The notes: generated from the letters alone by a model not told the origin. Positions 6,293-30,901 are shown, counted from the first letter of the stretch. The stretch: DNA of 62,718 nucleotides from a bacterium (GCA_036393335.1 DASWHD010000093.1:1-62718); one strand, 5' to 3'. Program-made: numbers and translations.

Positions 6293-6523
6293 CTAGCCCG
6301 CATTTCTCACCACGACTCTGCTGCACCCGCGCCACTGCCCGCATCTCCTGGCCGGGTCCTCGTCCGGGGTAGGAGCCGGTTGCACCGGCGACCCGCGCCG
6401 CCAGGCGCGGCCGGCCCCCTCGGGCCGAAATCGCCGCAGGGATTCGGCTCCTACCGCGGGCCGGCCAGGATTTAGGCCATTTGCGCGGTCTCGCGACGAT
6501 CCGTGGTGAGAAATGCGGGCTAG
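6293..6523. mobile_element. MITE-like palindromic repeat, copy B (231 bp)
   Basis: CTAG-CCCGCATTTCTCACCA ... TGGTGAGAAATGCGGG-CTAG with a central GTAGGAGCCG/CGGCTCCTAC hairpin. Same orientation as copy A. Confidence 0.85.
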
Positions 6524-9679: not shown

Positions 9680-9850
9680 ACGGGGCTCCTCCAGTGGTTG
9701 TGGCGCTGGGCGCCGAATGGGTGCATTCCCTGGGTATGGTCGGTGGTTGGGCAAGGCCACCCCGAGGAAGAAGAACGTGCCATTAAATTGGAAACGCCCT
9801 GCTCACGCAACGGGTTGCTCGTTTGCAGAGTTCCCCAATTTACTCAGGAA

Positions 9851-10333
9851 TTATCGGGGAATGGCGTCGGTGATCCGGCACACGGTGCGGTAATACGTTT
9901 CCCAGTCGAGGCCTAGGGCGGCGGCGCCGAACGCCTCCCCCACCTCGCCGGTGGCAGCCTCACCGTAGTTGACCACCACCAACGCGTAGAGGATGGCGGC
10001 CGTCGCGTCGTCGGGACGCCGCTCCAGGTGGGGGTGGACATACATGGTGAAGCCATGGGTGGGATCGCCCTCCACCGGCAGGGGGTAGGCGAGCTCCTCG
10101 CCTTGTAACGGCTGTGCGTCGAACACCACATGCACCGGAAACCGCACCACGTCCGGGTCCTCCAGCAGCGCGAGCAGGCGCGGATAATCGAGCCGCCCCC
10201 CGGCACGATCGTGGAGCGCAGTCCCGGTGGCGGCCGCGTGGGCGAGCAGCGCCTGCCGGGCAGTCTCCGCGCTGACCGGCGGTTCCTCGGGGACGGTGCC
10301 GCACGGGCAGGTGGGGCAGGGATCTTGGCTCAT
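9851..10333 (-). CDS. Hypothetical protein with a Cys/Pro-rich N-terminus (CPTCPCG)
   Basis: ORF in the same strand run, between the NrfD-like gene and the tetrahaem gene. No family recognised. Start set at MSQD to avoid overlap with the upstream gene. Confidence 0.45.
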   Translation of the reverse strand: MSQDPCPTCPCGTVPEEPPVSAETARQALLAHAAATGTALHDRAGGRLDYPRLLALLEDPDVVRFPVHVVFDAQPLQGEELAYPLPVEGDPTHGFTMYVHPHLERRPDDATAAILYALVVVNYGEAATGEVGEAFGAAALGLDWETYYRTVCRITDAIPR

Positions 10334-10367
10334 GGTGGACACGGGCGCGCTGCTCGTCGGATGGTTC

Positions 10368-11600
10368 TCAGCCGTGCGGCTTGTAGGTGACACCGCCGAC
10401 CTCGATCTGGATGGCGATCTTGGCCAGCATGGTGAAGATCAACGCGCCGAGGGCCCAGATGGCGATCGAGATCACCACCTCGGGGTTCGACGGCCAGTAC
10501 TCGAAGACCTCCCCCAGGGAACTGGGGATGAAGGCCGGAAGGACCAACCCCATGCCCTTTTCCGTCCAGATGCCGGCGAACAGCAACATGCACGCGATGT
10601 TCAGGGTCACCAGGTTTTTCCGCGTGCGCGGGATCATCAGTAGGACCGTCGCGATGACCATCGCCATCAGGGCGAGCCAGATATAGGGGCGCAGGAGGGC
10701 ATGGCCATGCAGACCGAAGTAGAGGTATTGCAGCGGCGCCTGGTGCGCCGAGGCGGAGTAGAAGACGGTAAAGATCTCCGATGCCGTGAAGAACAGGGAG
10801 ATGAGCATCGCCACCAGGATGATGTTGGCGATGCGGAACAGGGTCTCGTCCCGGATCTCAAACTCGTCGCCCGGGCTACCGTACGGGGTGTAGCGGCGTA
10901 CGATCTGCACGATGATGATGATCAGCGCCGGGCCGGCGGCGAAGGCCGTGGTGAGAAACCGCGGCGCCATCAAGGCAGTATTCCAGAACGGACGGGAGAC
11001 CATGCCGCAATAGATGAAGGCGGTCACCGTATGGATGCTCACCGCCCACGGGATCGACAGGTAAGTAAAGGGCAGCAGGACCTTCTTGTTCGGTTCTTTA
11101 TGATGGAAACGGCTGTAGAGCATGTAGCCGGGGATGAACATGTTGATGAACAGATAGCCGCTGAGCACCAGCACGTCCCAGGTGAGCAGCGACCCGGGAA
11201 AGTTCGGCCAGCCGATGACCGGCAGCAGGTGCCACACCCGATCCGGCCGGCCCATGTCCACCATGACGTAGATGATGCACATGATCAGGGCGGAGCTGGC
11301 GAGCATCTCCCCCAACAGGGTGACCGGCTTGAAGTCCTTGTACCCGTAGAGATACGCCGGGATGACGATCATCACCGCCGCGGCCGCCACACCCACCAGG
11401 AAGGTGAAGTTGGCGATGTAGGAGCCCCACACCACCTGGTCGCGCAGGCCGGTCACGATCAGGCCGTAGCGGAGCTGGTAGAGGTAGTAGTAGCCGCCTA
11501 CCATCGTGATCGAGAGCAGGGCGAGCAGCCAGGCGTAGTACCGGCGGCTGCCCGTAAGGGCGATCTTCACGGAGGCGAGGAGGAAGGTCAGTAGTTTCAT
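10368..11600 (-). CDS. NrfD/PsrC-family integral membrane quinone-interacting subunit (410 aa)
   Basis: Highly hydrophobic polytopic protein immediately downstream of a Tat-signal FeS subunit. Its size matches the DsrP/HmcC/ActC-type NrfD proteins. Confidence 0.8.
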   Translation of the reverse strand: MKLLTFLLASVKIALTGSRRYYAWLLALLSITMVGGYYYLYQLRYGLIVTGLRDQVVWGSYIANFTFLVGVAAAAVMIVIPAYLYGYKDFKPVTLLGEMLASSALIMCIIYVMVDMGRPDRVWHLLPVIGWPNFPGSLLTWDVLVLSGYLFINMFIPGYMLYSRFHHKEPNKKVLLPFTYLSIPWAVSIHTVTAFIYCGMVSRPFWNTALMAPRFLTTAFAAGPALIIIIVQIVRRYTPYGSPGDEFEIRDETLFRIANIILVAMLISLFFTASEIFTVFYSASAHQAPLQYLYFGLHGHALLRPYIWLALMAMVIATVLLMIPRTRKNLVTLNIACMLLFAGIWTEKGMGLVLPAFIPSSLGEVFEYWPSNPEVVISIAIWALGALIFTMLAKIAIQIEVGGVTYKPHG

Positions 11601-11608
11601 GGCGTCTG

Positions 11609-12577
11609 CTAGTCGATGAAGTAGAAGAACTTCGGGTGGGTCCCTAGCTCTTCCTTCAGACGGAAGACCCGTTTGGTGGCGATCAGCTTGCGGATCTCGC
11701 TCTCCGGGTCCAGGAGGTTGCCGAATTTCCGCGCCCCCACTGGACACGACTCGACGCACGCGGGGTAACGGCCGGTGCGGCTGCGTTGAATGCAGAAGGT
11801 GCACTTCTCCATGGTCCCCTTGAATCGCGGCCGGTTACCGATGTAGTGCATGTCGGGATTAATTCCTCCAGCGTGATAGGTGGGGGTGGTCCAGTTGAAG
11901 CGGCGCGCGAAGTACGGGCAGGCGGCGAGGCAGAAGCGACAGCCGATGCACCAGTTGTAGTCGACCACGACGATCCCGTCCTTTTCCTGCCAGGTGGCGT
12001 GGGTCGGACACACCTTGACGCACGGCGGGTTCTCGCATTGTTGGCACTGCACCGGCATGTAGTAGTACGCCGGGTCCGGGACCTTCTCGTGCTCGTAGTA
12101 GTGGTGGCTACCCTCGATCTCCATCGAGCCTTTCTCGATCTCCAGCACCCGAATCCACTCCATCATGGGATCGCGCGACTGGTTGTTCTCACCGACGCAC
12201 GCCTTCACGCACCTCCGGCAGCCGACACATTTACCAATGTTCAGGGCGTAGGCCCACAGCACCCCCTCCGGCGCCGGCACGGTGGAGATGGTGATGCGGT
12301 CGTCGTGGAATCGTTCGCGATAGAGCTTCTCCAGATAGGCGACGCGCTGTTCGACCTCGGCGGGGCTCATCTCCACAAAGTGGTGCAGGCAAAAGTCCTC
12401 CTTGGAGAAGATCTGCGGGACGTGCAGGAGGTCCTTGGGCAGCAAGGTCAGTGCCGCCAGGGCGGCGGTGCCCTGCCCCGTGCGGCGCAGGAAATCACGG
12501 CGCGAGACCCGCTCCTGCGGCGGCCGCAGCTCGATGGGCTGTGGCTCGGCGCAGCGGGGCTGCCTGGGCTCAGGCAT
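11609..12577 (-). CDS. Tat-exported 4Fe-4S ferredoxin-type subunit (NrfC/DsrO/HmcB-like)
   Basis: Twin-arginine signal SRRDFLRR. Multiple CxxCxxCxxxCP clusters (CVGCRRCVKAC, CQQCENPPCVKVCP, CIGCRFCLAACP, CTFC). Its ATG overlaps the upstream stop (ATGA). Confidence 0.85.
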   Translation of the reverse strand: MPEPRQPRCAEPQPIELRPPQERVSRRDFLRRTGQGTAALAALTLLPKDLLHVPQIFSKEDFCLHHFVEMSPAEVEQRVAYLEKLYRERFHDDRITISTVPAPEGVLWAYALNIGKCVGCRRCVKACVGENNQSRDPMMEWIRVLEIEKGSMEIEGSHHYYEHEKVPDPAYYYMPVQCQQCENPPCVKVCPTHATWQEKDGIVVVDYNWCIGCRFCLAACPYFARRFNWTTPTYHAGGINPDMHYIGNRPRFKGTMEKCTFCIQRSRTGRYPACVESCPVGARKFGNLLDPESEIRKLIATKRVFRLKEELGTHPKFFYFID

Positions 12578-13320
12578 CAGTCTCTCCTCCCGAAGGCCGC
12601 ATAGGCGGCGAGACCCACGAAGGCGAAGACGCCGAGGGCGACGACGAATGGCAGGTCCGGGGCCGCGGGGGGCGCGGCCGGATAATCTTCCGCCGGCTCC
12701 AGCGGCACCAGCTTGAACTGCGGATCGTGGGGGTTGTGGCAGCCGGTACAGATGCGCGCCGGTTTGGGCTCGCTCAACGTACCCACCCAGCGGCCGTGGA
12801 GACGGTTCTGCCAGTCGCGATAGATCGGCCCGTGGCATTGGCCGCACAGGCGTGGGGCCTCACCCCAAGGGATCTGTTCGCCATTGAAGAGCTGCAGCAC
12901 GTTGCGTTTGTTCGCGCTGTGGCAAGTGAGGCACCAGAAGGCGCCCTTGCCGTGCTTGAGGTCCTTGTCATCGTGCGGGTCCTCCAGCTTGCGCGGTGTC
13001 GGATCGACCTCCCACGTCTCGTCGTGGCAATCGGTGCAGGTTCCCTCTTCGAAGCGGAACGGCTCCTGGAAATCGCCCTCCAGCCACCCGTCGAGGGTGC
13101 CGTTCTCCTGGTAGTAGAGACCGGCCGGGCCCGGCACACGGATATCCTCGGGATGGCAGACCACACAGCCCTGGCCGGTCTTCTCCGCCATGGCGACGGT
13201 GGCGTGCGCCTGGCCTCCCGCCAGCAGGAGCAAGGAGATGCACAGGGTGGAGTGGAGCACGACGCGGGCACGGCGCGCTGATCGTGGAGGGAGAGGCAAG
13301 GGCGCGCGGGGCAGGTTCAT
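12577..13320 (-). CDS. Pentahaem c-type cytochrome with a C-terminal membrane anchor
   Basis: 5 CXXCH motifs (CVVCH, CTDCH, CLTCH, CGQCH, CTGCH). N-terminal signal and a C-terminal hydrophobic helix (FVVALGVFAFVGLAAYAAF). Confidence 0.85.
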   Translation of the reverse strand: MNLPRAPLPLPPRSARRARVVLHSTLCISLLLLAGGQAHATVAMAEKTGQGCVVCHPEDIRVPGPAGLYYQENGTLDGWLEGDFQEPFRFEEGTCTDCHDETWEVDPTPRKLEDPHDDKDLKHGKGAFWCLTCHSANKRNVLQLFNGEQIPWGEAPRLCGQCHGPIYRDWQNRLHGRWVGTLSEPKPARICTGCHNPHDPQFKLVPLEPAEDYPAAPPAAPDLPFVVALGVFAFVGLAAYAAFGRRD

Positions 13321-13340
13321 GGGGGAAACGGTGGCTTGGC

Positions 13341-14153
13341 TCACTCGGTCTTCTTCTGCAGGGACTCGCGATGCGCCCGTCTCTTCTCCTCCAGCTTGGC
13401 CTGCTCGATCTCCCGCTCCTTTTGCCGGAGGCGGTTGAGGATCGCGTCCGAGGTGTCCTGCGCCTGGTCGAGGTTGAAGGTGTGCCAGGCGATGCGCTGG
13501 TTCTTCACCTGCTCGTAGAAGGGCACCATCTCCTGCGGCTGGCCAATCGACTCGTAGTACGCTCCAACCCACTTCAGGTAGCTGCTGATTATCATGTTGT
13601 GGCGGCGGATCTGGCGTGCTTTCTCGGGAAAGCCGGGGTGGTTCCCGGTCTCCTCGTTGTGGCAGCGCTCACACACCGTGGCGATCTTCGACGGGGTAAG
13701 GACCGTCGTGTTGAGGGAACCGTGACAGGTGACGCAGTTCGGGCCGACGCCCTGCTCGGTGAGACGGCGGTAGTGCTTGCTCTGGGTGAAGCTATCGTAG
13801 ATCTCGGCGTGGCACCGGCCGCACACCTTGGGGATGTTCTTGTAGAAGACCTGGCTTCCGGGTAGCCCGGCTTCCAGCGCCTTACCGTGGGCCTGGTCCT
13901 TGTCGGCCGCCTGCGGGTCGCCTCCGTGGCAGTCGGAGCAGGTGACCCCATTGGCCGCGTGGCTGGAAGCGCTCCACTTCTGGAAGTAATCGAACAGCTT
14001 CTTGTTGCGTACCGCAAACGACGGGTCGCCGTGGCAGGTGACGCAACGATCCTCGGCGGCGGCCGCCACCGGGGCCGGGACTATCAGCACGGGCAAAACG
14101 ATCGCCGCCCACAGCGTCAGACCCAGGCGCGCTACTCGTCCGCTCACATCCAT
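13341..14153 (-). CDS. Pentahaem c-type cytochrome (secreted), first gene of the minus-strand operon
   Basis: 5 CXXCH motifs (CVTCH, CSDCH, CGRCH, CVTCH, CERCH). N-terminal signal-like hydrophobic segment. Confidence 0.85.
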   Translation of the reverse strand: MDVSGRVARLGLTLWAAIVLPVLIVPAPVAAAAEDRCVTCHGDPSFAVRNKKLFDYFQKWSASSHAANGVTCSDCHGGDPQAADKDQAHGKALEAGLPGSQVFYKNIPKVCGRCHAEIYDSFTQSKHYRRLTEQGVGPNCVTCHGSLNTTVLTPSKIATVCERCHNEETGNHPGFPEKARQIRRHNMIISSYLKWVGAYYESIGQPQEMVPFYEQVKNQRIAWHTFNLDQAQDTSDAILNRLRQKEREIEQAKLEEKRRAHRESLQKKTE

Positions 14154-14787: not shown

Positions 14788-15015
14788 GTGATTACCCTCA
14801 AGGTCGTGGTCCTCGCGCTGGTCCATATCGCGCTGCTGGTCGTCATGGGCGGGACCCTGGTGAGCATCATGAGCAGCGACGTGAGGTTCACCGACGAAGC
14901 CGGTTTGACCTGGCACAAGGGCGCGGCTAGCCGGGCAGCGGTGAAGGCGACGATCTGTTTCCTCGCCTTCTGCGCCTACCTCTTCATGATCATCAACTTC
15001 AAGTTCGTCGGGTAG
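14788..15015 (+). CDS. Possible small two-helix membrane protein (75 aa, GTG start)
   Basis: Hydrophobic ORF preceded by GGAGG, lying between the sigma-54-like element and the FeS gene. No family recognised. Confidence 0.3.
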   Translation: MITLKVVVLALVHIALLVVMGGTLVSIMSSDVRFTDEAGLTWHKGAASRAAVKATICFLAFCAYLFMIINFKFVG

Positions 15016-15055
15016 CCGCGCCCCGGTACCGGCGGCCCCACCGGGAGTCAACCGC

Positions 15056-15706
15056 ATGGCCTTTGAGGTGAACAACGGCGCGCGCAACGGCGCGCGCAAA
15101 GTCCGGTACGGGATGCTGGTGGACCTGCGTCGCTGCGTCGGCTGCCAGTCGTGCTCCGTGGCCTGCAAGAGCGAAAACGAGGTGCCGCTCGGTAAGTTCC
15201 GTACCTGGGTGAAGGTAATCGAGAAGGGCCGTTATCCGGACGTCAGCCGGCAGTTCCTGCCGATCATGTGCAACCAGTGCGAGAAGCCGATCTGCAACCG
15301 CAACTGCCCGGTCAAGGCGACCTACGTGCGCGACGACGGCATCGTCGAGGTCAACCCCCATCGCTGCATCGGCTGCATGTACTGCATGGCGTCGTGCCCG
15401 TACGACGTGCGCTACATCAACCCGCTGCGCAAGATCGTACAGAAGTGCAATTGGTGCGCGCACCGCCTCGATGCGGGGTTGTTGCCGGCCTGCGTCGAGA
15501 CCTGTCTGGGCCGTGCCCTGGTGTTCGGCGACATCAACGACCCGAACAGCGAGATCTCGCAGCTCCTGGCGACCAATCCGGTGGTTACCCTGAAGGCGGC
15601 TCTCGGGACCGAACCACACTGCTTTTACATCGGGGCGGACGCGGACGCCATGGATCCCACCAAGGGCGTGGACATCAACCACCTGCACTTCCACGAGCCG
15701 TATTAG
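15056..15706 (+). CDS. 4Fe-4S ferredoxin-type subunit (PsrB/TtrB/NrfC-like, no own signal peptide)
   Basis: CVGCQSCSVACK, CNQCEKPICNRNCP, CIGCMYCMASCP and CNWC...C cluster motifs; 216 aa. Confidence 0.9.
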   Translation: MAFEVNNGARNGARKVRYGMLVDLRRCVGCQSCSVACKSENEVPLGKFRTWVKVIEKGRYPDVSRQFLPIMCNQCEKPICNRNCPVKATYVRDDGIVEVNPHRCIGCMYCMASCPYDVRYINPLRKIVQKCNWCAHRLDAGLLPACVETCLGRALVFGDINDPNSEISQLLATNPVVTLKAALGTEPHCFYIGADADAMDPTKGVDINHLHFHEPY

Positions 15707-15707
15707 T

Positions 15708-15810
15708 GAGAGCCGTCAGCTTTCAGCGGTTAGCTGTCAGCTCGTGGAATCCCGAAATGAAAGACTTCCGATCAAGCTGACCGCTGAAGGCTGATCGCTG
15801 AGAGCTAACC
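15708..15810. repeat. Heptamer-periodic hairpin repeat ((NNTCAGC)x4 ... (GCTGANN)x5)
   Basis: Read directly. It fills the 105-nt gap between the FeS gene and the NrfD-like gene of one operon. Confidence 0.8.
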
Positions 15811-15811
15811 C

Positions 15812-16750
15812 ATGGACGTCGGAAGCCAAGTGACGGTGCTCTACAACGCGCCGTACCAGATGCCGTTTCAGCTCCCCATCGCGCAGTACTTCTACTTCAC
15901 GGGTCTGTCGGCTGGCTCGTTCGTGGTATCGGTGATCGCGGTCCTCGGCGGCAAGACCGAATACAAGCCCCTGGGCCGGATCGGCGCGATTCTCGCGCCC
16001 CTGTGCCTGATCCTGGCGCCGATGAACCTGCTGGTGGACATGACCCAGCCGCTACGGTTCTGGCACCTGATGACCTACCTGCCGGGCTACGTGAACTTCC
16101 GCTCGCCCATCACCTACGGCGTGATGCTCCTCACCTCCTATCCCATCTCGGCGATCGTCTACGCCTATTTCGTCTATTCGGACAACCTCAAGTGGTCGAA
16201 GATCATGGCGATCATCGGCATCCCGCTGGCGATCGCCGTGCACGGGTACACCGGCTTCATCCTCGCCTTGGGGAAGGGCCGCGCCCTGTGGAACACGGCG
16301 CTGATGCCGACCCTGTTCATCGTCTCCGCGATGGTGTCGGGCATCGCCTTGATGATCATCATGGCGGTGATCCGCAACCTGTGGATGATGCGCGACGAGA
16401 CGCCGGAGGCGCGGCAAAAGGACGCCCAGCTCATCTGCGGCCTGGGCAACTTCCTCGGGGCGGCGATCGTCGCCGATCTCTTCCTCCTGTTTAACGCGGT
16501 GTTGGTGATCTTGACCTCCAGCCAAGAGGCGTTCCACGCGGCGGAGCTCCTCCTCTGGGGCCACTTCGCCCCCGAATTCATCGGCGTCGAGCTGATCATC
16601 GGCGCCCTGATCCCGCTGGTCATCGTCTTCTACCCGAAGACCAAGCGCTCGTTCGCTTGGCTGAGCCTGGCCTCGGTGATGACCATGGTCGGCATCTTCG
16701 CGATGCGTTTCACGGTAGTGGTCGGGGGACAGTCAGTACCCCTTCACTGA
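15812..16750 (+). CDS. NrfD/PsrC-family membrane anchor subunit (312 aa)
   Basis: Polytopic hydrophobic protein in a PsrC-like size class, between the FeS subunit and the molybdopterin subunit. Confidence 0.82.
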   Translation: MDVGSQVTVLYNAPYQMPFQLPIAQYFYFTGLSAGSFVVSVIAVLGGKTEYKPLGRIGAILAPLCLILAPMNLLVDMTQPLRFWHLMTYLPGYVNFRSPITYGVMLLTSYPISAIVYAYFVYSDNLKWSKIMAIIGIPLAIAVHGYTGFILALGKGRALWNTALMPTLFIVSAMVSGIALMIIMAVIRNLWMMRDETPEARQKDAQLICGLGNFLGAAIVADLFLLFNAVLVILTSSQEAFHAAELLLWGHFAPEFIGVELIIGALIPLVIVFYPKTKRSFAWLSLASVMTMVGIFAMRFTVVVGGQSVPLH

Positions 16751-16811
16751 CGGCCATCACCGAAGCGACCGGCAGAACGGTGGGGCGATCGTTGTGTAAG
16801 GAAACGTGGCG

Positions 16812-19121
16812 ATGAAATTGACGCGCAGGCAGCTCTTCAAATACTCCGCCCTGGGCGGTGCGTTGCTGGGGATGGAGCGCTCCTTCGACCACATGGCACG
16901 GGCCATGGAGCTGATCGAGGGGGGCAAGGAGGTCTCGCGCACCACGGGCAAGAACCTCAAGGCGATCCCGAGCACCTGCCTGCACTGCTACGCGCGCTGC
17001 GGCAACTTCGGCTTCACCGCCTATGGCGAGCTGCTCAAGATCGGTCCCAGCACCCAGCATCCGAATAGCCGGGGTCGTCTATGCGCCAAGGGACAGGCGG
17101 GGCTGAACCGGGTCTACGACCCGGATCGCCTGATGCTGCCGTTGAAACGCACGGGGCCGCGTGGCGAGGGCAAGTGGCGGCAGATCTCGTGGGAGGCGGC
17201 GTACCAGGAGGTGGCCGACCGTCTGAAGGCCCTGCGCCAGGCGGGCACGCCGGAGCGTTTCGTCTTCCAATCCGACCGCGACATCACCACCCAGCAGATC
17301 ACTCGCCGCTTCTGCCACGCCGTCGGCTCGCCCAACGCCCTGGTCAACCATCCGGTGGGCGGCCTCAACAAGAGCGTGGCCCAGCGGCTCACCTGGGGCG
17401 CGGATTGCGAGGTGCCGGACGTCGCCAACAGCCAGTACATCCTGATCTTCGGCTCCAATCCTTACGAGGCCCACTACCTGCGCACCAGCTTCGTGCAGCG
17501 CATCGCCGAGGCGCGCGGCGTGCGCCGCGCGGGGACCCTGCTCAAGCCCAAGGCGAAGATGGTGGTGTTCGACGTGCGCGTCACCCAGACTTCGGGGCGT
17601 GCCGACGAGTGGCACCCGATCCAGCCCGGCACCGACGGGGCCGTGGCCCTGGCGATGGCCCACGTGATCGTCGAGGAGGGGCTCTACGACGTGGAGTTCA
17701 TGGAGAACTGGACCAACTACCCGATCCGTTCCCTGCGTAACCACCTCCGCCAGTACACTCCCGAGTGGGCCGAGGGGATCAGCGGCGTGAAGGCCTCCGA
17801 TATCAAGCGCCTGGCGCGGGAGTTCGCCACGACCAAGCCGGCGACCACCGTCTCCACCGGGGGGGTGACCAAGCACGCCAATGGCGTCTATACCGAGCGC
17901 GCCGTGGCGCTGCTCAACGCCCTGACCGGGAATGTCGACGTGGAGGGTGGCTACTGTCTGCCGCGCAGCTTCGCACTAGCGGATCCGGAGCCGGTACCGC
18001 TGGTGCCGCGGGTGGCGAGCGAGCTCCTGCACCCGTCCGATTACCCCCTCGCCATGCACGAGGTGCCGTCGCGGGTGCTGCCCATGATCAAGGAAGGCCG
18101 GGCCAAGGTCGGCGTGTACATGACCTATCAGCACAACCCCGTGTACTCCCAGGCCGAGGGGCCGTCGTTGGCAAAGATCTTGGAGGACGAGGAGCTGATT
18201 CCGTACTTCGTCTGCCTCGACTCGGTGTACACCGAGACCGCCGCATACGCGGACCTGCTGCTGCCCGCCGCGACGTTCGCTGAACGCTGGGAGTTGGAGA
18301 GCCCGCCCGCCTTCGAGATGGTGCCGTTCGTCTCGTTACGCCAACCCCTCATCTTCCCCCTCGGCGAGGCGGTGGCAGTCACCGACGTGCTGATCAATCT
18401 CGCCGCGCGCCTCGGGGACGATGTGCACCGCTACTTCGACTTCACCACCCGCGAGTATCTGGAGGCACAGCTTGCCGGCGTGCCCGGCATCGAGCAGGCG
18501 GGGGGGCTGCACCACCTGATCGAGAAGGGGTTCTGGTTCGACCAGGCCGCCCAGCCGGAGTACCGCAGCTATCAGAGGCGCGGTTTCGCCACCCCCTCCG
18601 GCAAGTTCGAGATCTATTCCGGACGGATGGAGGAGGCCGGTTACTCGCCCCTGCCGGTCTATCAGCAGCTCCCGGTGGTGGAGAACCTGGAGGAAGAGGA
18701 GTTCACCCTCGTCACCTACCAGAGTCGGGTGCACACCCATGATCGCACCGCCAACTGCATGTGGCTCTCGGAGATCGACCATAACAACCCGGCGTTCATC
18801 AACACCGCCACCCTGGAGCGGCTGGGGATCGCCGATGGCAGCGAGGTGGTGCTCGCGTCCCGCGTCGGGCGGGTCCGGACCAAGGTCAAGGCGATCCAGG
18901 GGATCCACCCCAAGGTGATCGCCGTTAGCGACAACATGGGTCACTGGGAGCTTGGCCGTGTCGCCCAGGCCGTGCGCTTCGAGAGCGACGTGAAGACCAC
19001 CAAGTTGCTGTGGTGGGAGGAGCACGGGATACACCCCATGCCGATCATCGCCCTCAAGCAGGACCCGATCGGCGGCGGCGAGGCGTTGATGGATACCAAG
19101 GTCTGGATTCGCCGGGCATAA
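16812..19121 (+). CDS. Tat-exported molybdopterin (bis-MGD) oxidoreductase catalytic subunit, PsrA/PhsA/TtrA-like
   Basis: Twin-arginine signal MKLTRRQLFKYSALGG. N-terminal FeS motif CLHCYARCG...CAKG. About 770 aa with a molybdopterin-oxidoreductase layout. ATG 16812 is preceded by AAGGAA. Confidence 0.88.
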   Translation: MKLTRRQLFKYSALGGALLGMERSFDHMARAMELIEGGKEVSRTTGKNLKAIPSTCLHCYARCGNFGFTAYGELLKIGPSTQHPNSRGRLCAKGQAGLNRVYDPDRLMLPLKRTGPRGEGKWRQISWEAAYQEVADRLKALRQAGTPERFVFQSDRDITTQQITRRFCHAVGSPNALVNHPVGGLNKSVAQRLTWGADCEVPDVANSQYILIFGSNPYEAHYLRTSFVQRIAEARGVRRAGTLLKPKAKMVVFDVRVTQTSGRADEWHPIQPGTDGAVALAMAHVIVEEGLYDVEFMENWTNYPIRSLRNHLRQYTPEWAEGISGVKASDIKRLAREFATTKPATTVSTGGVTKHANGVYTERAVALLNALTGNVDVEGGYCLPRSFALADPEPVPLVPRVASELLHPSDYPLAMHEVPSRVLPMIKEGRAKVGVYMTYQHNPVYSQAEGPSLAKILEDEELIPYFVCLDSVYTETAAYADLLLPAATFAERWELESPPAFEMVPFVSLRQPLIFPLGEAVAVTDVLINLAARLGDDVHRYFDFTTREYLEAQLAGVPGIEQAGGLHHLIEKGFWFDQAAQPEYRSYQRRGFATPSGKFEIYSGRMEEAGYSPLPVYQQLPVVENLEEEEFTLVTYQSRVHTHDRTANCMWLSEIDHNNPAFINTATLERLGIADGSEVVLASRVGRVRTKVKAIQGIHPKVIAVSDNMGHWELGRVAQAVRFESDVKTTKLLWWEEHGIHPMPIIALKQDPIGGGEALMDTKVWIRRA

Positions 19122-19130
19122 GGTGGCGAT

Positions 19131-20309
19131 ATGATCCGCATCCCCAAGATACGGCTGAAGTACTTCCTGATCGCGCTGCCCTTCATCGTGTCGATTCCGA
19201 GCGTCTTCGTGTTGGCGCTGGAGCGCTTCACCACCTCCGACCAGCGCTTCTGCCTCACCTGCCATTACCAGATGTGGGGCAAGGACTTTCTCGTCGACTC
19301 GAAGGTCCACCCGCCGGAGGTACGGTGTCCCGAGTGCCACGCGACGGAGCACGTCCCGTTCTTACCACCCAAGGATTTCGCCTCCGACCCGAGTCGGGTC
19401 AACGTCAACTGCATGCGCTGCCACGGGGAGATGGTCGAGCGGTCAGACGTGGAGGGCTTCAAGTACAACGTGATGAAGATCCAGTTCCCCCACAAGCTAC
19501 ACCTCCAGGAGGTGGGGGCCCTGTGTACCGACTGCCACTACAACGTGAAGCACGACAAGCACATCCCCCAGACCAACCGGCCGCGGATGGTGGCGTGCTT
19601 CGAGTGCCACGATCAGGAGACGACGAGCTGCCTGAAGTGCCATCCCAAGGGCGAGCACCTGCTGCTCAGCCTGCTACCGCGCCACGAAACGATCGCCAAG
19701 CCGGTGTGCGAACAGTGTCACGAGGGTTTCGAGGACCGTGTGCAGGTGGAGTACGGCATCCGTTTCAAGCATGCCAAGCACCTGGAAAACGGCATCGCCT
19801 GCGGGACCTGTCACGAGAACAAGAACCAGCATGGGGTCATCACCAAGCAACGCAGCGAGTGTATGGCCTGCCATCACGGCGATGAGGCCCGCGCCTGCAC
19901 TGACTGCCACGCCACGCAGGTGGCGATGCGCTCCGGCAAGCTCCTGGGCATCCCCGGCGAACCTGACGTCATGGCGGCCGATGTCGAGTGCGACGTATGC
20001 CACGCGGAAGTGCGTGAGGGACACGACCCGCAGGCGATCCGCCAGACTTGCGCCGATTGCCACGAGGATGCCGTTCTCGCCAAGCTGGACGAGATCCAAC
20101 GGCGGGTGAGCGCCGAGCTGGCACGGATCGGCGGCCGGTTCGACGTCCTCCAGGATGGCCATTCGGCCGGCGTGGTGGTGGCCGGGGAGATCCTCGATGA
20201 CCTGCGCGGCGATGGCAGCCGTGGCTTCCACAACGCCAAGTACGCCGACATCCTGTTGCAGCGCGCGGATGAGCTGATCTCGGCGGAGGGGCGCGCCGAG
20301 GTCAAGTGA
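19131..20309 (+). CDS. Membrane-anchored dodecahaem c-type cytochrome with a NapC/NirT-like N-terminus
   Basis: 12 CXXCH motifs. N-terminal TM helix followed by FCLTCH...VH...CPECH, as in NapC/NirT/CymA-type quinol dehydrogenases. Confidence 0.85.
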   Translation: MIRIPKIRLKYFLIALPFIVSIPSVFVLALERFTTSDQRFCLTCHYQMWGKDFLVDSKVHPPEVRCPECHATEHVPFLPPKDFASDPSRVNVNCMRCHGEMVERSDVEGFKYNVMKIQFPHKLHLQEVGALCTDCHYNVKHDKHIPQTNRPRMVACFECHDQETTSCLKCHPKGEHLLLSLLPRHETIAKPVCEQCHEGFEDRVQVEYGIRFKHAKHLENGIACGTCHENKNQHGVITKQRSECMACHHGDEARACTDCHATQVAMRSGKLLGIPGEPDVMAADVECDVCHAEVREGHDPQAIRQTCADCHEDAVLAKLDEIQRRVSAELARIGGRFDVLQDGHSAGVVVAGEILDDLRGDGSRGFHNAKYADILLQRADELISAEGRAEVK

Positions 20310-20347
20310 GGGTGACCTTTCCCCAGTCTCTACCCAGGGTCTCCGCC

Positions 20348-20767
20348 ATGAACCGACACCTCCTACGGGCTGCATGCCTTGCGTTCCTCCTCCTCGGTGC
20401 CTGCTCGTCGCCGAGCCCCGAGGGGCCGCCCAACACCGACTTCGGGGGCAAGTGGAGTGGCGCCGCGTACAAGACCGGCAGTGCCAATCCGAGCTTCACC
20501 CTTGATTTGGAGCAGTCCGCCGACGCCGTGAGCGGGACGATCAGCTCCGGGGACGGAACCTTTCAGGCGGTAGCGTTAGAGGACGTGCACATCGAGGAGG
20601 ATGGCGGCCTGATCTTCCGCGCCCGGGCCAACGGCGGCTCACAGTTCAAGGACCACCTCTTTCTGTTCGACGCCCACCGCAAGGGCAACACCCTGGAGGG
20701 CACCTGGACCGACATCCTCCAGGGGGCCCAGGGGCCGTTCACCCTGTACGCCGGCGAGGGGCACTAG
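20348..20767 (+). CDS. Putative lipoprotein, unknown function
   Basis: Signal peptide with lipobox LLGAC. Last gene of the plus-strand run. Its TAG stop is the flank of MITE copy C. Confidence 0.5.
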   Translation: MNRHLLRAACLAFLLLGACSSPSPEGPPNTDFGGKWSGAAYKTGSANPSFTLDLEQSADAVSGTISSGDGTFQAVALEDVHIEEDGGLIFRARANGGSQFKDHLFLFDAHRKGNTLEGTWTDILQGAQGPFTLYAGEGH

Positions 20768-20970
20768 CCCGCATTTCTCACCACGGGTCGTCGCGAGACC
20801 GCGCAAATGGCCGTAGATCCTGGCCGGCCCGCGGTAGGAGCCGATTCTATCGGCGACCCCATGTGGCAGGTCGCCGAAGGGATTCGGCTCCTACCCCGGA
20901 CGAGGACCCGGCCAGGAGATGCGGGCAGTTGCGCGGGCGCAGCAGAGTCGTGGTGAGAAATGCGGGCTAG
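20764..20970. mobile_element. MITE-like palindromic repeat, copy C (207 bp, inverted orientation)
   Basis: CTAG-CCCGCATTTCTCACCA ... TGGTGAGAAATGCGGG-CTAG. The internal sequence is the reverse complement of copies A/B/E. Confidence 0.85.
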
Positions 20971-21222: not shown

Positions 21223-22392
21223 CTACGGCGTGTGGCACTTGCGACAGACGCGCTCGTTGGTGCGGTTGAAGGTGGAGTCAAACCCCGGTGGGTGGGGGTT
21301 GATGCCAAGCCCGCCGGCACCCGCATCGGCGTGACAGTTAATGCACACCGGCCGGCTGCCCTCGTGACAGCCGGCGCATTGCACGATGTTGCGGCGGATG
21401 GCGGCGATGCCCGCGGGCGAGGTGTCGTGGAAGCCCCCGGTGACCGACACCAGCGGATGATTACCACCCCACGGGTCCGGCCCTCCTTGCACCCAGCGCA
21501 CGCCAGACCGGCCGTGGCAGTCGGTGCAGGTGTTGACGCGGTGGCAGCCCAGACATTGCTGCACGTCGCGACTGGCATCGATGGGGTGGTGGCTGACGTA
21601 GTCTCCGCGGTGAATGAAGTGACGATCGGTGCGCCGGGGCCACTTGACCTCCGGCTTCACCTGATTGTCCACGCCGTTATGACAGTCGGCACAGAAGTCT
21701 TCCTGGTGGCATTGGGCGCAGGCGGTGGGATCTTGCTGCTCGGAGTGGAGCTGGTGGTTGCGCAGCCAGTCGCCGCGATGGGAGAAGTGGGCGAGCTCGG
21801 GTCTATAGCGCGGATCGCTGAGGTCGGAGTGGCACTTGGCGCAGTGCAGTTGGTCGTAATCCTCCTGATGGCAGGTCATGCACGGCGCCATCGTGGGCAG
21901 CTTCTCATCGTGGACGTGCGCCGCCTTGAGGACCCGGTCGTGGCAGACGTGGCAGTCCTCGTCCACCCGTGGCACGTGATCTTGGTGGGAGAAGATCAGC
22001 GGGTGGTCGTAGCGCACCGGCTTGGGCGGTGCTTCCTTGCGCTTGGCTTCCTCCAGGGTCTCCGCATCTCGGTGACACACCCCGCAATCCTTGTCGGCGA
22101 TCTGCTGCTCATGACACTGCTCGCACACCTCCATGGTCGGCAGGTCGCGGGTGTGCTCGTCGGCGCTGCTCTCGATCCCGCCGTGGCACTCACGGCACGG
22201 GATCTCGTTGTCCACCGCGTGGAGCTTGTGGCTAAAGTTGAAGTGCTCGGGGGGCTGGCGAAAGATGTGCAGGCAGGCGGCGAGGCCGGCGAGCAACGCT
22301 ACCGCGACAAACACTTGCAGGGCACGCACCGTCGGCGAGGAGATCGACATCTCCCGGGCCCCCGGGGGGGAGGTGGTATGTGGGGCGTTCAT
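21223..22392 (-). CDS. 13-haem c-type cytochrome, probable lipoprotein
   Basis: 13 CXXCH motifs. Hydrophobic N-terminus ending in the lipobox-like LAAC. ATG 22392 is preceded by AGGAG. Starts 31 nt after the barrel gene's stop. Confidence 0.85.
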   Translation of the reverse strand: MNAPHTTSPPGAREMSISSPTVRALQVFVAVALLAGLAACLHIFRQPPEHFNFSHKLHAVDNEIPCRECHGGIESSADEHTRDLPTMEVCEQCHEQQIADKDCGVCHRDAETLEEAKRKEAPPKPVRYDHPLIFSHQDHVPRVDEDCHVCHDRVLKAAHVHDEKLPTMAPCMTCHQEDYDQLHCAKCHSDLSDPRYRPELAHFSHRGDWLRNHQLHSEQQDPTACAQCHQEDFCADCHNGVDNQVKPEVKWPRRTDRHFIHRGDYVSHHPIDASRDVQQCLGCHRVNTCTDCHGRSGVRWVQGGPDPWGGNHPLVSVTGGFHDTSPAGIAAIRRNIVQCAGCHEGSRPVCINCHADAGAGGLGINPHPPGFDSTFNRTNERVCRKCHTP

Positions 22393-22423
22393 CTCCGTGA
22401 CTCCTGTGACCGGGAGGGGGGGG

Positions 22424-23746
22424 CTAGAAGTTGTACACCAGCTTGACGGTGGCATCGACGTCTTGGCGGAAGCCGAGATCCGACTCCCGCGTGCTCGGTA
22501 CCCGGATCTCGCTGCCGCCGGCGGTAACCGTGGTGTAGTCCCGATAGTCGGGGCGCGTGCCGTAGTCGAGGCTGCCGGTGAGCTGCCAGTGATCGCCGAT
22601 GTCCGCCCCTAGGGTGGCCGTCGTGCTGTACGTGTAGTGCTGACGGTCCCCGGGGAAGATCGGGTCGTCGAAGTGGTAGAGGATGAAGTCGAGGCCGTAG
22701 AACAGCCTGGTGAGGTCCGAGCGGCTGGTGACCCATGGGTTATCGAAGGTGTAGCGCCCGTAGAGGTGGGTCCGCTTCGACTCCGGCCAATTCTCGAAGG
22801 CGGCGCCGACCTCGTTGCGCAACCCCTTGCCCCACCGGTAGTGGCCCTCGGCCCCTTCGGTCCAGTCGTCGTCGCCGTCGCTGTAGTCGTAGCGGCGCGC
22901 GTCGGCGGACAGGGTCCAGTGTCTGTCGACCCGGTAGTCGGCGCGCAGGCCGAGCTCCCGCTGCTTGTCGTCGGAGAAGATCAGATTACCGAAGATCGAC
23001 GTGTGGCTCAGGAAGAGGTTGGGGATCACCTGACCGTAGTCGGCCGAGAACAGCAGTTTGGCGGTCGCCTCCCAGGTAAGGAGGAACTGGTAGTCGAACC
23101 ACTCCTCCGAGATACGGTCCCAGAAGCCGTGGGCGTTGACCGCGACCTTGTCGATGACCTGGGCCCAGCCGTCCAGCCCGAGGCGTGCGAAGCCGGTCTG
23201 ATCGTCGTCCCGCGTCTCCATCGCGGAGGCGCCCACCTCGAAGCGCGGCTGGCGGGTGTAGAGCCGGCCGCCCCACTCCAGGTCCCCGGACCGGCCCCCG
23301 ATGTCGTCATTCACCTGCCGGCCGGCATACGCCTGGAAGCCGATGCGGTACTGGCTCAGCCAGTCACCATACACGCCGTCGAGGTACTCGCTGGCGACGC
23401 CGGCGCGGACGAATTGCCGCCCCGCGCGCACGAAGAGGTTCCGCTCCCGGTCCCGCCACTGGAGGTAGGCGTAGGTCAGCTCCCCGTCGACGTTGTGGTC
23501 GTAGGTCTGGTCACGCAGGTCGACCTTGCCGAAGCCGTCGAGATGAAAGCTCAGCGCTTCATTTCCCAGGTCGTAGGCATTCAGCGAGACAAACTGGAAG
23601 AGTGGGATCTGCTCCGTGTTGCCGTCGACGTCGAACCGCTCCTGGGTGTAGGCCAGGGTGGTAAGCCGCCCCCGTAGCTCGGCGGAGTGGGCCGAGCCGC
23701 CGATGAGGACCGCGCAGCAAGCCACGACCAAGGCACGCGTCGCCAT
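22424..23746 (-). CDS. Outer-membrane beta-barrel (porin-like) protein, 440 aa
   Basis: Cleavable signal (MATRALVVACCAVLIGGSAHSA). Alternating hydrophobic/aromatic strand pattern rich in Y, G, D and R. C-terminal ...VKLVYNF ending in Phe. No CXXCH motif. Confidence 0.65.
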   Translation of the reverse strand: MATRALVVACCAVLIGGSAHSAELRGRLTTLAYTQERFDVDGNTEQIPLFQFVSLNAYDLGNEALSFHLDGFGKVDLRDQTYDHNVDGELTYAYLQWRDRERNLFVRAGRQFVRAGVASEYLDGVYGDWLSQYRIGFQAYAGRQVNDDIGGRSGDLEWGGRLYTRQPRFEVGASAMETRDDDQTGFARLGLDGWAQVIDKVAVNAHGFWDRISEEWFDYQFLLTWEATAKLLFSADYGQVIPNLFLSHTSIFGNLIFSDDKQRELGLRADYRVDRHWTLSADARRYDYSDGDDDWTEGAEGHYRWGKGLRNEVGAAFENWPESKRTHLYGRYTFDNPWVTSRSDLTRLFYGLDFILYHFDDPIFPGDRQHYTYSTTATLGADIGDHWQLTGSLDYGTRPDYRDYTTVTAGGSEIRVPSTRESDLGFRQDVDATVKLVYNF

Positions 23747-24080: not shown

Positions 24081-25031
24081 CTACTGCGCCAGTGAGACCT
24101 TCAGGTGGGGTAGGTAGAAGGGCTCGGGTGAGAGCGGCTCGTGACAGTTGCCGCAGGTCTCCTCGATCTCCGCAACGGTGAACCGCCAGTGGTGGGCCCT
24201 GTGGCAGTCAGTGCAATTTCCCACCGCATCCAGGTGGAGGGCATGGACCTCGTGCTCGCCGATCGGCTTGTGGCAGCCCAGACAAACCTCCGGCTTGGGC
24301 TTGGTGAGTTCCGGATCGTGCGGCTTGTGACAGACCGTGCATTGCAGGTGCATCAACTCTTGTTGTTCGTCCGGGTCTGGCCCGAACTGCTGGTGGCAGG
24401 CGAGGCAGGTGCGGCGGTCCGGTTTGATGTCGCGGGTCTTGTCCGTGTGGCAGCTCAGACAGCGCACCACCGGCTCACCCGCGACGCTGCCGTGTAGATA
24501 GTCGACCTGCCCTTCGTGGCAATTCAGGCACAGGTCCATGGCCGGTGGAAATACATGGAGGCTCTGGCCGGCGTGGCACTGGGCACACTCGATCTCCTGG
24601 ACATACACGTGCAACGCGTGCCCCATGGATTGGTTGATCTTCGGGGCGTTGGGGTAGTCGGGATTCTTGCGCCAGTGGCACTTGACGCAGTACTCGAAGG
24701 GTACATTCACCGTCCCCTTGGTCTTTACGTAGGGATCGGTGACCTTCTCCGGTGCGAGGAAGATGGTCTGGAGCAGCATCTTGTTTTTTGCGGCGGTGGT
24801 GGCGTGGTGGCACTCGTGGCAGTTGATCCCCCGGTGCACGCTCTGCTTCCACGCCTCGAATGCACTCTCCATCACGTGGCACTGATTGCAGAAGGTCGGA
24901 TCGTTCTCCATGTAGTCCTGCGCGAAGTAGTTGGCCGTGAGACCCACCCCACCCGAGGCGAGCAAGATGACCACCAGGAGCAGCGGGCGGCGGGCGAGAA
25001 ACAGCCACGCATACCGCACGAATCTCAGCAT
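24081..25031 (-). CDS. Membrane-anchored undecahaem c-type cytochrome with a NapC/NirT-like N-terminus
   Basis: 11 CXXCH motifs. N-terminal TM helix followed by FCNQCH...SVH...CHECH. Confidence 0.85.
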   Translation of the reverse strand: MLRFVRYAWLFLARRPLLLVVILLASGGVGLTANYFAQDYMENDPTFCNQCHVMESAFEAWKQSVHRGINCHECHHATTAAKNKMLLQTIFLAPEKVTDPYVKTKGTVNVPFEYCVKCHWRKNPDYPNAPKINQSMGHALHVYVQEIECAQCHAGQSLHVFPPAMDLCLNCHEGQVDYLHGSVAGEPVVRCLSCHTDKTRDIKPDRRTCLACHQQFGPDPDEQQELMHLQCTVCHKPHDPELTKPKPEVCLGCHKPIGEHEVHALHLDAVGNCTDCHRAHHWRFTVAEIEETCGNCHEPLSPEPFYLPHLKVSLAQ

Positions 25032-30888: not shown

Positions 30889-30901
30889 GGTTCCTCCCCG
30901 G

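Follow-up and report, generated by a model that had tools for sequence, protein, structure and literature searches.

Here we describe a group of six closely spaced genes on the + strand (positions 14788-20767) of a 62,718-nucleotide stretch of bacterial DNA (GCA_036393335.1 DASWHD010000093.1:1-62718), the whole of which we henceforth refer to as the window. Four of these genes encode, in this order, a ferredoxin-type iron-sulfur (FeS) protein (B), an NrfD/PsrC-type membrane protein (C), a MopB/DMSO-reductase-family subunit carrying a twin-arginine translocation (Tat) signal (A) and a multihaem cytochrome c. We found that the B-C-A order combined with a multihaem cytochrome is the signature of an undescribed family, widespread among uncultured anaerobes, and not an oddity of one genome, and that the A subunit of the window lacks the canonical molybdenum (Mo) ligand. 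Comparison across genomes showed the cytochrome to be a predicted obligate, co-inherited subunit of this family; it likewise showed a predicted four-module complex encoded as one unit, in which the FS0 [4Fe-4S] site of A, the cluster sites of the ferredoxin and the 8-helix quinone subunit appear intact. The family is an undescribed complex on the known plan of NrfCD and complex iron-sulfur molybdoenzymes (CISM). It carries the module set of Qrc and alternative complex III (ACIII) on a Psr/Arr-type chassis. The likeliest reading, to which we give an even chance, is that this four-module complex links the quinone pool to a multihaem cytochrome network, possibly with an atypical Mo or tungsten (W) site.

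Spread of the family and the cytochrome partner

The top 120 database homologues were 45-100% identical, carried generic names only and came from metagenome sources. A scan of one genome per GTDB species yielded 80 homologue loci (here numbered in the form L001), every one of which is a genome bin derived from metagenomes (79 are in records titled as metagenome-assembled genomes, MAGs), and their gene contexts were taken from six-frame open reading frames (ORFs) and a phmmer survey. The loci came from Nitrospirota, Nitrospinota, Armatimonadota, Chloroflexota, Thermodesulfobacteriota, syntroph lineages, Scalindua-type anammox Planctomycetota, Methylomirabilota, Actinomycetota (Thermoleophilia), Bacillota, Gemmatimonadota, Cytophagia and KSB1; one of them, a Nitrospirota MAG (L001), encodes an A subunit 92% identical to that of the window and is syntenic with the window throughout. 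The B-C-A order was seen at every locus whose contig covers B and C. Cysteine was missing from the Mo-ligand column of A at 77 loci (henceforth non-Cys), all from MAGs and spread over at least 12 phyla, and 72 of these had enough flanking sequence to judge the neighbourhood. A same-strand multihaem cytochrome gene adjoined the operon in all 72 (counted as adjoining when directly after A, after A and a TorD gene, or directly before B), and in 71 of the 72 partner cytochromes a transmembrane (TM) helix lies just ahead of the first haem. By contrast, the Cys-bearing Bacillota loci L029, L034, L038 and L042 have no neighbouring cytochrome; in the corresponding tally Cys-bearing Bacillota score 0 of 3. 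Across 62 loci the distances between A subunits and between cytochrome heads were strongly correlated (Mantel Spearman r = 0.76, reached by 0 of 999 permutations), which argues that A and the cytochrome were inherited together.

These results bear on an earlier note on the same DNA, which had asked for such a neighbourhood survey and had called the joint presence of a PsrC/NrfD anchor and a NapC/NirT-like multihaem cytochrome atypical. The combination is indeed unlike every characterised Psr/Phs/Ttr/Arr/Tor system, so the description stands against characterised enzymes; within the family it does not, because there the pairing is the defining feature. The suggestion in that note that a Mo enzyme-like module is wired to a multihaem cytochrome gained support from the invariable adjacency, from the Mantel correlation and from a gap of only 9 nucleotides (nt) between the two genes of the window. 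The operon and the features within it are as follows (aa, amino acids; residue numbers refer to the 769-aa product of A).

14788-15015, + strand: 75-aa protein with two predicted TM helices; GTG start with GGAGG 6 nt upstream; the operon's first gene in this Nitrospirota clade
15056-15706, + strand: B subunit, 4x[4Fe-4S] ferredoxin type, 216 aa; 16 Cys in four cluster motifs; Fer4_11 at 84 bits
15711-15806, strand not assigned: imperfect 32-nt inverted repeat filling most of the 105-nt B-C spacer
15812-16750, + strand: C subunit, NrfD/PsrC-type quinone-site membrane protein, 312 aa; Pfam NrfD at 160 bits; 8 predicted TM helices
16812-19121, + strand: A subunit, Tat-exported MopB/DMSO-reductase-family protein, 769 aa; Tat motif TRRQLFK; PF04879, PF00384 and PF01568 above cut-offs
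16977-17084, + strand: FS0 [4Fe-4S] motif C56-x2-C59-x3-C63-x27-C91, then K93
17358-17360, + strand: Gly183 at the Mo-ligand column (HMMER alignments to 2VPW, 6CZ7, 2E7Z and 9VAP; MAFFT with five references)
19131-20309, + strand: multihaem cytochrome c, 392 aa, 12 CxxCH motifs; inner-membrane anchor formed by a single N-terminal TM helix, residues 12-30
19164-19610, + strand: conserved cytochrome head with TM helix, (Y/F)TT(S/T)xxxFCxxCH, S.VHP and five CxxCH; common to the partner cytochromes of nearly all family loci
20348-20767, + strand: lipoprotein, 139 aa; lipobox LLGAC; the ORF opens at 20306, with a probable ATG start at 20348
20764-20970, strand not assigned: 207-nt palindromic element starting at the lipoprotein stop codon; 22-nt terminal arms 100% complementary

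All six genes have a coding-type G+C content at third codon positions (GC3 0.86-0.92). Every gene that the earlier note described (FeS protein, NrfD/PsrC anchor, Tat-exported MopB subunit, cytochrome and lipoprotein) was recovered at the position given there; the 75-aa ORF from 14788, the loss of the Mo ligand and the 207-nt terminal hairpin had gone unmentioned. A Shine-Dalgarno (SD)-like AAGGTGG spans the A stop codon. In a consensus scan, which is uninformative for a high-GC organism, the interval between A and the cytochrome gene gave no + strand match of promoter or terminator type; the sole + strand match of the scan in the operon was a weak promoter-like site where A begins. Given the 9-nt gap with its SD-like site and the lack of a promoter- or terminator-like site in between, the cytochrome is a genuine operon partner of A. 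We propose that all genes from 14788 to 20767 make up a single operon, encoding a membrane complex that faces the periplasm. No RNA sequencing run contained the operon region; near-identical DNA of this region was present in many soil and sediment metagenomes.

The 75-aa protein had no Pfam match, but phmmer (E 1e-39 to 1e-17) found its homologues in L001-L006; those of L001-L004 and L006 share the strand of B and lie upstream of it, and that of L005 lies ~2.4 kb further upstream. The lipoprotein matched neither Pfam nor NCBIfam; its homologues lie 3' of the cytochrome gene in L001, L002, L003 and L006, and it is a clade-specific accessory gene. The B subunit has no signal peptide of its own, and all NCBIfam models stayed below cut-off on it, the top ones being TtrB (231 bits; cut-off 416) and DsrO (196 bits; cut-off 200). 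On the C subunit the NCBIfam NrfD, DsrP, TtrC and QrcD models were all far under their cut-offs. For A, an alternative GTG start at 16806 would give a product of 771 aa. The inverted repeat between B and C may be an mRNA processing or stability element, and the terminal hairpin (RNA fold -157.6 kcal/mol, z = -14.6) is likely a bidirectional terminator or an element resembling repetitive extragenic palindromes or miniature inverted-repeat transposable elements (REP/MITE-like) that marks the end of the operon.

The cytochrome has 12 CxxCH motifs, against an average of 0.1 and at most 2 in shuffles of the same protein. The protein is built of three regions, namely a head resembling NrfH and NapC/NirT, haem modules of the c7 type and, at the C-terminus, a helical domain, and it matched Pfam Cytochrome_C7 and c3_2. 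In profile searches its middle resembled the c7-type modules of the Geobacter dodecahaem cytochrome GSU1996 (3OV0), and its C-terminal helical part resembled 6I5B and MccA, with ActA of ACIII weakly matched. The head (the first ~160 residues) is kept in all phyla, with 17 invariant columns across 18 phylogenetically distant loci, and haem number ranges from 5 to 21 across the family. As to the "NapC/NirT-like" label used in the earlier note, it is apt for the head: an N-terminal TM helix closely precedes haem 1, the family head profile matched the tetrahaem quinol dehydrogenase NrfH (2J7A_C) along its full length, at positions 16-148 with E = 3.7e-10, and PF03264 (the NapC/NirT N-terminal region) was found in the orthologues of L055, L072 and L030 (29.3, 27.8 and 26.2 bits, respectively; gathering score 24.1). 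The window cytochrome itself gave no match to this domain at E <= 0.01. Some operons (L010, L012, L018, L039, L080 and others) contain extra large cytochromes with 14, 15, 16 or 24 CxxCH motifs, and in the Chloroflexota loci L037, L041 and L047 the NrfH-headed cytochrome lies 5' of B, not 3' of A.

The A subunit lacks the canonical molybdenum ligand

We aligned A with four solved enzymes (polysulfide reductase 2VPW, arsenate reductase 6CZ7, acetylene hydratase 2E7Z and formate dehydrogenase 9VAP), and in both phmmer and profile alignments their metal-binding Cys all fell on the first Gly of HPVGGLNK. In a MAFFT alignment the ligands of PsrA, ArrA, E. coli plasmid PhsA and haloarchaeal FdhF (Cys) and of Klebsiella DmsA (Ser) occupy one column, at which the window protein has Gly183. 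The canonical Mo ligand is absent from the A subunit of the window. Over 81 loci this column holds 33 Gly, 9 Tyr, 9 Glu, 5 Ser, 4 Cys, 4 Phe, 3 Thr, 3 Leu, 3 Arg, 2 Asn, 2 His, 2 Lys, 1 Ala and 1 Gln, a spread which indicates that it is unconstrained. Inspection of the Mo ligand, which the earlier note had recommended, thus returned no canonical residue, and its picture of A as an ordinary catalytic subunit of the bis-MGD type (MGD, molybdopterin guanine dinucleotide) with S, As or Se oxyanions as substrates is not supported, the Mo-coordinating Cys/Ser being replaced by Gly at an unconstrained position. The Cys ligand in the loop after the GSPN motif, which marks the Cys-coordinated "chalcophile" clade (Psr/Phs, Arr/Arx, Ttr/Srd), is Gly183 here; neither Cys nor Ser occupies the canonical Mo position in the MAFFT alignment. 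We also considered Cys382 (in GGxCLPR) as a replacement ligand. A clean swap is unsupported: Azoarcus (see below), L029 and L034 have both cysteines, Cys382 is lacking in eight non-Cys loci (L045, L049, L058, L060, L065, L075, L076 and, by shift, others), and it is also absent from the Cys-bearing L038 and L042.

Much of the remaining active-site region is conserved. The four FS0 Cys are invariant in the family alignment (0.99-1.00 retention in 72 full-length non-Cys sequences), Asn186 and Lys187, directly past the ligand position, are nearly invariant, and in the loops equivalent to the active site H355 and C382 are nearly invariant and N357 and H711 invariant. A nearly invariant GNxDxxGGxCLPR loop is equivalent to the formate dehydrogenase loop with the catalytic Arg. 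Conservation extends to a GGxxVSRTTG insert before FS0, which is specific to the family, and to a WW...DPIGGG extension at the C-terminus. An AlphaFold2 (AF2) model of A (pLDDT 86.2, pTM 0.88) had as its top Foldseek match ArrA 6CZ7 (query-normalised TM-score, TMq, 0.80) and also matched PsrA 2VPW (TMq 0.80; target-normalised TMt 0.84). Together with the three Pfam models, these TM-scores of 0.80-0.84 place A in the MopB/DMSO-reductase superfamily with its four-domain fold, and the operon has the architecture of a CISM, encoding side by side A with its FS0 motif, B with four clusters and a membrane anchor.

Curated family models placed A inside none of the characterised families. The best NCBIfam model on the window protein was PhsA (NF012032), at 340.6 bits against a cut-off of 694; ArrA, DmsA, TtrA and QrcB scored much lower (TtrA 119 bits against 1750), and no NCBIfam cut-off was reached. 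Among 33 family members scanned, the best E-value was 2.8e-136 (PhsA), implying a score well under the 694 cut-off, and only 2 matched the arsenite-oxidase model. A profile of the family matched PsrA best among solved structures (356 bits, full length) and ActB at 37-52 bits. On the window operon the Qrc A, B, C and D models scored 19.5, 176, 123 and 28 bits, respectively, where their cut-offs are 180, 440, 400 and 570. We rejected the QrcB score as a sign of affinity to Qrc, since canonical Cys-bearing sisters score the same on that model (154-191 bits). In a neighbour-joining (NJ) tree (751 columns, 100 bootstraps; references PsrA, PhsA, ArrA, DmsA and FdhF), the family, with the sequences from Azoarcus and Bacillota included, was monophyletic in 99 of 100 replicates apart from the five references. 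The Cys-bearing sequences and L077 formed a clade with a support of 93, and monophyly of the non-Cys group received only 20, which leaves the root within the family uncertain. A falling squarely in a characterised clade, which the earlier note had named as the outcome that would count against its view, was seen neither in the hidden Markov model (HMM) scores nor in the tree. Full-text literature searches, whose coverage leaves out some key reviews, returned no description of a complex combining B-C-A with an NrfH-type cytochrome, and of the NrfD complexes catalogued in a published work only Qrc joins BCA-type subunits with a cytochrome (PMC8076601).

The nearest cultured homologue is encoded on plasmid pAZKH of Azoarcus sp. 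KH32C (L081; 37.8% identity), where the ligand column carries Cys (SVCESSK). Its operon has the order B-nrfD-A-TorD, lies beside arsA/ACR3 genes and contains no cytochrome gene.

NC_020548: 59931-68244, strand not given: Azoarcus L081 operon with ferredoxin, nrfD, 879-aa A, TorD, three hypotheticals, a 369-aa FeS protein and a hypothetical

The Azoarcus A subunit passed no curated family cut-off, and its third FS0 Cys is replaced by Asp (CHVCNIQDG). Genes for a PhnD-like binding protein, a histidine kinase and a sigma-54 regulator lie nearby, in an arrangement which resembles aioXSR/arxXSR-type control. We also considered the Cys-bearing Bacillota sisters as possible SrdBCA selenate reductases, whose genes have the same B-C-A order, and rejected this identity, since SrdA groups with TtrA (PMC10100899), yet the TtrA model gave only 135-151 bits on these sequences.

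Proposed function and its alternatives

A central question for the function of the complex is whether A keeps a pterin cofactor. At 13 non-Cys loci of two distant lineages, i.e., Nitrospirota (L005, L007-L009, L032, L057) and Thermoleophilia/Actinomycetes (L052-L056, L059, L071), a gene of the TorD/DmsD/NarJ family (PF02613, 71-97 bits; cut-off 22.2) separates A from the cytochrome gene. In L057, for example, A ends at 11355, TorD (11359-12042) follows 4 nt past A, and the cytochrome gene (12039-13259) overlaps TorD by 4 nt. The presence of these chaperone genes in 13 sister operons suggests that a pterin cofactor is kept. Moreover, 29 of the 32 positions identical in five canonical enzymes are retained by the family, equal to the Cys-bearing sisters, and these include the Asp of AD..LP, which is lost in cofactor-less NuoG.

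Several observations weigh against a retained cofactor and, more broadly, against the function we propose. The universal-position test discriminates weakly, given that NuoG, used as a cofactor-less control, still keeps 21 of the 32 positions; NuoG also keeps the homologous cluster, so retention of FS0 is no proof of a pterin. We found no TorD gene in the window operon, in the 62.7 kb around it or in the operons of the window's subclade, no Mo cofactor (Moco) biosynthesis genes in the window, and no Moco riboswitch or any other Rfam family in it. The ligand column accepts bulky residues (Tyr, Phe, Arg and Glu), which may suit a vacant site more than one that binds a metal. With regard to the cytochrome, the CxxCHxM motif of NrfH haem 1 is not conserved (the window has CLTCHYQM, with Met one residue later, and other lineages have no Met), which makes a second quinol site in the NrfH-like head doubtful. 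All non-Cys members furthermore come from MAGs, and the tree has few references, TtrA, SrrA, ArxA, SrdA, QrcB and ActB having been compared by HMM scores only. Taking both sides together, these comparisons lean slightly towards cofactor retention in the family as a whole, and a shade less so at the window locus.

The complex that we propose would consist of a PsrB-type four-cluster protein, an 8-helix NrfD/PsrC subunit, a Tat-exported PsrA/ArrA-like A and an NrfH-headed c7-type haem wire. B would be exported by hitch-hiking on A via Tat, and C and B would exchange electrons with menaquinone; the NrfH-like head, possibly a second route, would sit beside C at the membrane like ActA and QrcA in their complexes. 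The haem wire would move electrons to or from periplasmic or outer-membrane cytochromes encoded next door. If A held a Mo/W-bis-pterin without a canonical residue, the metal site could serve as a third electron terminal; without a metal, A could resemble its counterparts in Qrc and ACIII and be a scaffold for B as well as its carrier through Tat. We put forward only tentatively the strongest form of this proposal, in which a ligand-less Mo/W-bis-pterin subunit is hard-wired to an NrfD quinone site and an NrfH-headed wire and the family represents an unrecognised, widespread respiratory class. If true, this would be a second lineage with ligand-free Mo coordination after Aio/Idr, given that AioA and IdrA are the only MopB enzymes described with a Mo-bis-pyranopterin guanine dinucleotide (Mo-bisPGD) and no amino-acid ligand, ActB being without cofactor (PMC10100899). 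In uncultured anaerobes it would also be an inner-membrane gate between the quinone pool, a substrate in the periplasm and conduits for extracellular electron transfer. It would, moreover, be a surviving intermediate, with catalytic CISM enzymes on one side and Qrc and ACIII, which are cofactor-less, on the other.

Alternatively, the complex may be purely of the Qrc/ACIII type, with A devoid of pterin and acting as structural partner and Tat carrier of B, and with FS0 structural or a side relay; we consider this possible but somewhat unlikely, and no less doubtful is its corollary that electron transfer from quinone to multihaem cytochrome would be the sole activity. The canonical ligand is lost from a column unconstrained enough to include Tyr, Phe, Arg and Glu, ligand loss and cytochrome presence correlate perfectly, B has no signal peptide, neither TorD nor a Moco gene is present in the window, and QrcB and ActB provide precedents of cofactor-less catalytic-subunit homologues within the same four modules (PMC6303296, PMC13059093, PMC10100899). 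However, QrcB is without redox cofactors and ActB has lost its cluster, whereas the FS0 Cys are invariant here over at least 12 phyla; at the 13 non-Cys loci a TorD-family chaperone gene sits between A and the cytochrome gene in translational coupling; the PsrA match is full-length and far above that of ActB (356 vs. 37-52 bits); and polar residues of the active-site loops are kept (N186, K187, H355 and C382 nearly invariant, N357 and H711 invariant). The C subunit, moreover, belongs to the 8-helix class of true Mo enzymes and not to the 10-helix QrcD/ActC class (PMC6303296).

An ordinary Psr/Phs/Ttr/Arr-type quinol:substrate reductase (of S, As or Se compounds), with the cytochrome as a dispensable accessory or an alternative donor, is in our view improbable. 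This is the baseline from which the earlier note started and the customary annotation in KEGG/COG. The top curated model of A is indeed PhsA (340 bits), the closest structures are PsrA by sequence and ArrA, then PsrA, by fold, the B-C-A order is that of ttrBCA, members have been annotated phsA in MAG studies (e.g., Ca. Scalindua sediminis; PMC9325076; L067), and the Cys-bearing sisters (Azoarcus KH32C beside ars genes, and Bacillota) resemble conventional enzymes. On the other hand, the defining Mo-binding Cys is absent, the PhsA score is half of the cut-off with ArrA, TtrA and DmsA far lower, and the family is split from PsrA, PhsA and ArrA at 99/100; the view of the cytochrome as dispensable is weakened by its never being missing in judgeable non-Cys members. 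Finally, the window has many multihaem cytochrome genes on either side, so coincidence could account for an adjacency seen in one genome, but the reading of the cytochrome gene as an unrelated neighbour with its own promoter, part of a surrounding cytochrome island, is very improbable and effectively refuted by the 9-nt gap with a ribosome-binding site over the A stop codon, the lack of a promoter-like site in between (in the consensus scan, uninformative at high GC), adjacency at all 72 informative loci of at least 12 phyla, co-divergence of A and the cytochrome head, and tightly packed A-TorD-cytochrome genes in sister loci (L057), none of which bears out the separate promoter that the earlier note had named as a way for its view to fail.

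These findings matter for how the family is annotated. MAG annotations of its members as "thiosulfate/polysulfide reductase" (phsA/psrA) or "selenocysteine-containing dehydrogenase" are probably wrong, and so, with the defining Mo ligand missing, is sulfur-cycling capacity inferred from them. The anammox MAGs L067 (Ca. Scalindua sediminis), L030, L031 and L026 carry a non-Cys B-C-A plus 11-haem cytochrome module. A phsA gene in a Ca. Scalindua sediminis MAG has been reported as evidence for thiosulfate reduction (PMC9325076), and this inference is doubtful if the reported gene is that of L067. Conversely, a superfamily survey kept only sequences with the expected ligand (PMC10100899, methods), and such a ligand-based filter would discard the family. 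The four-module complex is also a candidate inner-membrane quinone-to-cytochrome module for uncultured lineages that have multihaem cytochromes but no CymA-, ImcH- or CbcL-type proteins, including Nitrospirota, Chloroflexota, syntrophs, Scalindua-type anammox bacteria, Methylomirabilota and Thermoleophilia. Since a near-canonical Psr/Arr-type A (with FS0 and, in some cases, TorD) is here combined with the subunit set of Qrc/ACIII, the family makes the origin of cofactor-less MopB scaffolds testable.

Genomic surroundings and comparison with known systems

Several other respiratory genes lie around the operon, among them a second, divergently oriented module of NrfCD type with cytochromes. The features are as follows.

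9197-14153, - strand: second respiratory module, divergent from the operon, NrfCD type with cytochromes
13341-14153 and 12577-13572, - strand: two 5-haem cytochromes of the second module
11609-12847, - strand: Tat ferredoxin of the second module, DsrO-like, 181 bits
10368-11804, - strand: long NrfD subunit of the second module, DsrP model 403 bits, above the cut-off of 350
9197-9760, - strand: 4-haem cytochrome, which with a 180-aa protein of no assigned family makes up the remainder of the second module
21223-22455, - strand: 13-haem cytochrome, part of a porin-cytochrome-like trio
22424-23746, - strand: 440-aa candidate outer-membrane beta-barrel; signal peptide, C-terminal ...VKLVYNF, no Pfam match
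24081-25031, - strand: 11-haem NapC-like cytochrome; TM helix, NapC-type FCNQCHVM motif
30124-30888, - strand: cytochrome b561/Ni_hydr_CYTB-type membrane protein, adjoining a 488-aa multihaem cytochrome (30902-32368)
188-394, 6293-6523, 20764-20970, 32598-32619, 37809-38017, 51015-51245 and 53748-53832: palindromic intergenic elements, mostly ~185-230 nt, terminal arm CTAGCCCGCATTTCTCACCACG

No DsrMK genes were seen in the second module (9197-14153), whose equivalent in L002, L003 and L006 has the same orientation as the lipoprotein gene and lies downstream of it. L002, L004, L005, L008 and L057 have a homologue of the 11-haem gene immediately upstream of B. The neighbouring NrfCD module, the 13-haem cytochrome, the beta-barrel candidate and the 11-haem cytochrome are potential partners for the haem wire, and the pair at 30124-32368 is a candidate for a further quinol-oxidising module.

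The palindromic elements look like a REP/MITE-like family. The arm CTAGCCCGCATTTCTCACCACG occurs in 13 copies in the window against 0 expected, and it is absent from all 85 fetched loci, including L001 (92% identical). Several elements begin at stop codons or directly beside them, and at 20764 and 53748 the sequence CTAG holds the TAG stop of the gene. The region 54001-58000 has an unusually high G+C content (0.79 for 54001-56000, then 0.73 for 56001-58000; other parts are at about 0.65), and the GC3 filter listed no ORF there.

Among known systems, PsrABC (Thermus thermophilus, 2VPW) and PhsABC share with the family a chassis of three subunits, in which a MopB protein that has FS0 and is exported by Tat is joined by a ferredoxin with four clusters and an NrfD/PsrC anchor with 8 helices. 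They differ in gene order, which is B-C-A here, in the ligand (Cys173 of PsrA aligns with Gly) and in lacking the NrfH-headed multihaem subunit, the GGxxVSRTTG insert and the WW...DPIGGG tail. TtrBCA has the same B-C-A order, and TtrB is the top curated match of B (231 bits), but TtrA is about 1020 aa long and has a Cys ligand.

QrcABCD of sulfate reducers likewise combines a multihaem cytochrome with a TM anchor, a MopB-like subunit that is exported by Tat and has no Mo ligand, a ferredoxin and an NrfD-type subunit, with all redox subunits periplasmic and cytochromes c linked with menaquinone (PMC6303296, PMC13059093). In contrast to the invariant FS0 of the family, QrcB is without any redox cofactor, QrcD has 10 helices against the 8 predicted in C (the 8-helix NrfD class going with true Mo enzymes; PMC6303296, PMC13059093), and the gene order differs. 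Qrc is also restricted to Deltaproteobacteria (PMC8076601), whereas the family is spread far wider, and the equal scores of Cys-bearing sisters on the QrcB model speak for no special affinity between the two. ACIII (ActABCDEF; 6F0K, 6LOD, 8K9E, 6BTM) is similar in its TM-anchored multihaem ActA, its MopB-like/ferredoxin subunit and its NrfD-type quinol site, but ActB is a fusion without pterin and FS0 (PMC10100899) where A and B are separate genes here, and genes for ActD, ActE and ActF are absent from the operon.

In TorCAD/DorCAD and in Shewanella ArrAB-CymA, a MopB enzyme is fed by a membrane-anchored multihaem cytochrome of the NapC/NirT family, and ArrAB depends on CymA. The torCAD operon further resembles the B-C-A-TorD-cytochrome sister operons in its TorD chaperone gene, and TorC is both anchor and donor (PMC11727998). 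Unlike the family, which has both routes, these systems have no NrfD/ferredoxin pair; the ligand is Ser in TorA and Cys in ArrA, and their cytochromes have 4-5 haems against 5-21 here. AioAB/IdrAB provide the precedent for a catalytically competent, ligand-free Mo-bisPGD site (PMC10100899), but they belong to a different clade, their FS0 is a [3Fe-4S] cluster, their partner subunit is a Rieske protein, and NrfD and ferredoxin are missing from them, where the family has a four-Cys FS0 and a four-cluster ferredoxin. Elsewhere, modules of NrfCD plus cytochrome have been proposed to act as quinol:cytochrome reductases (PMC9386147).

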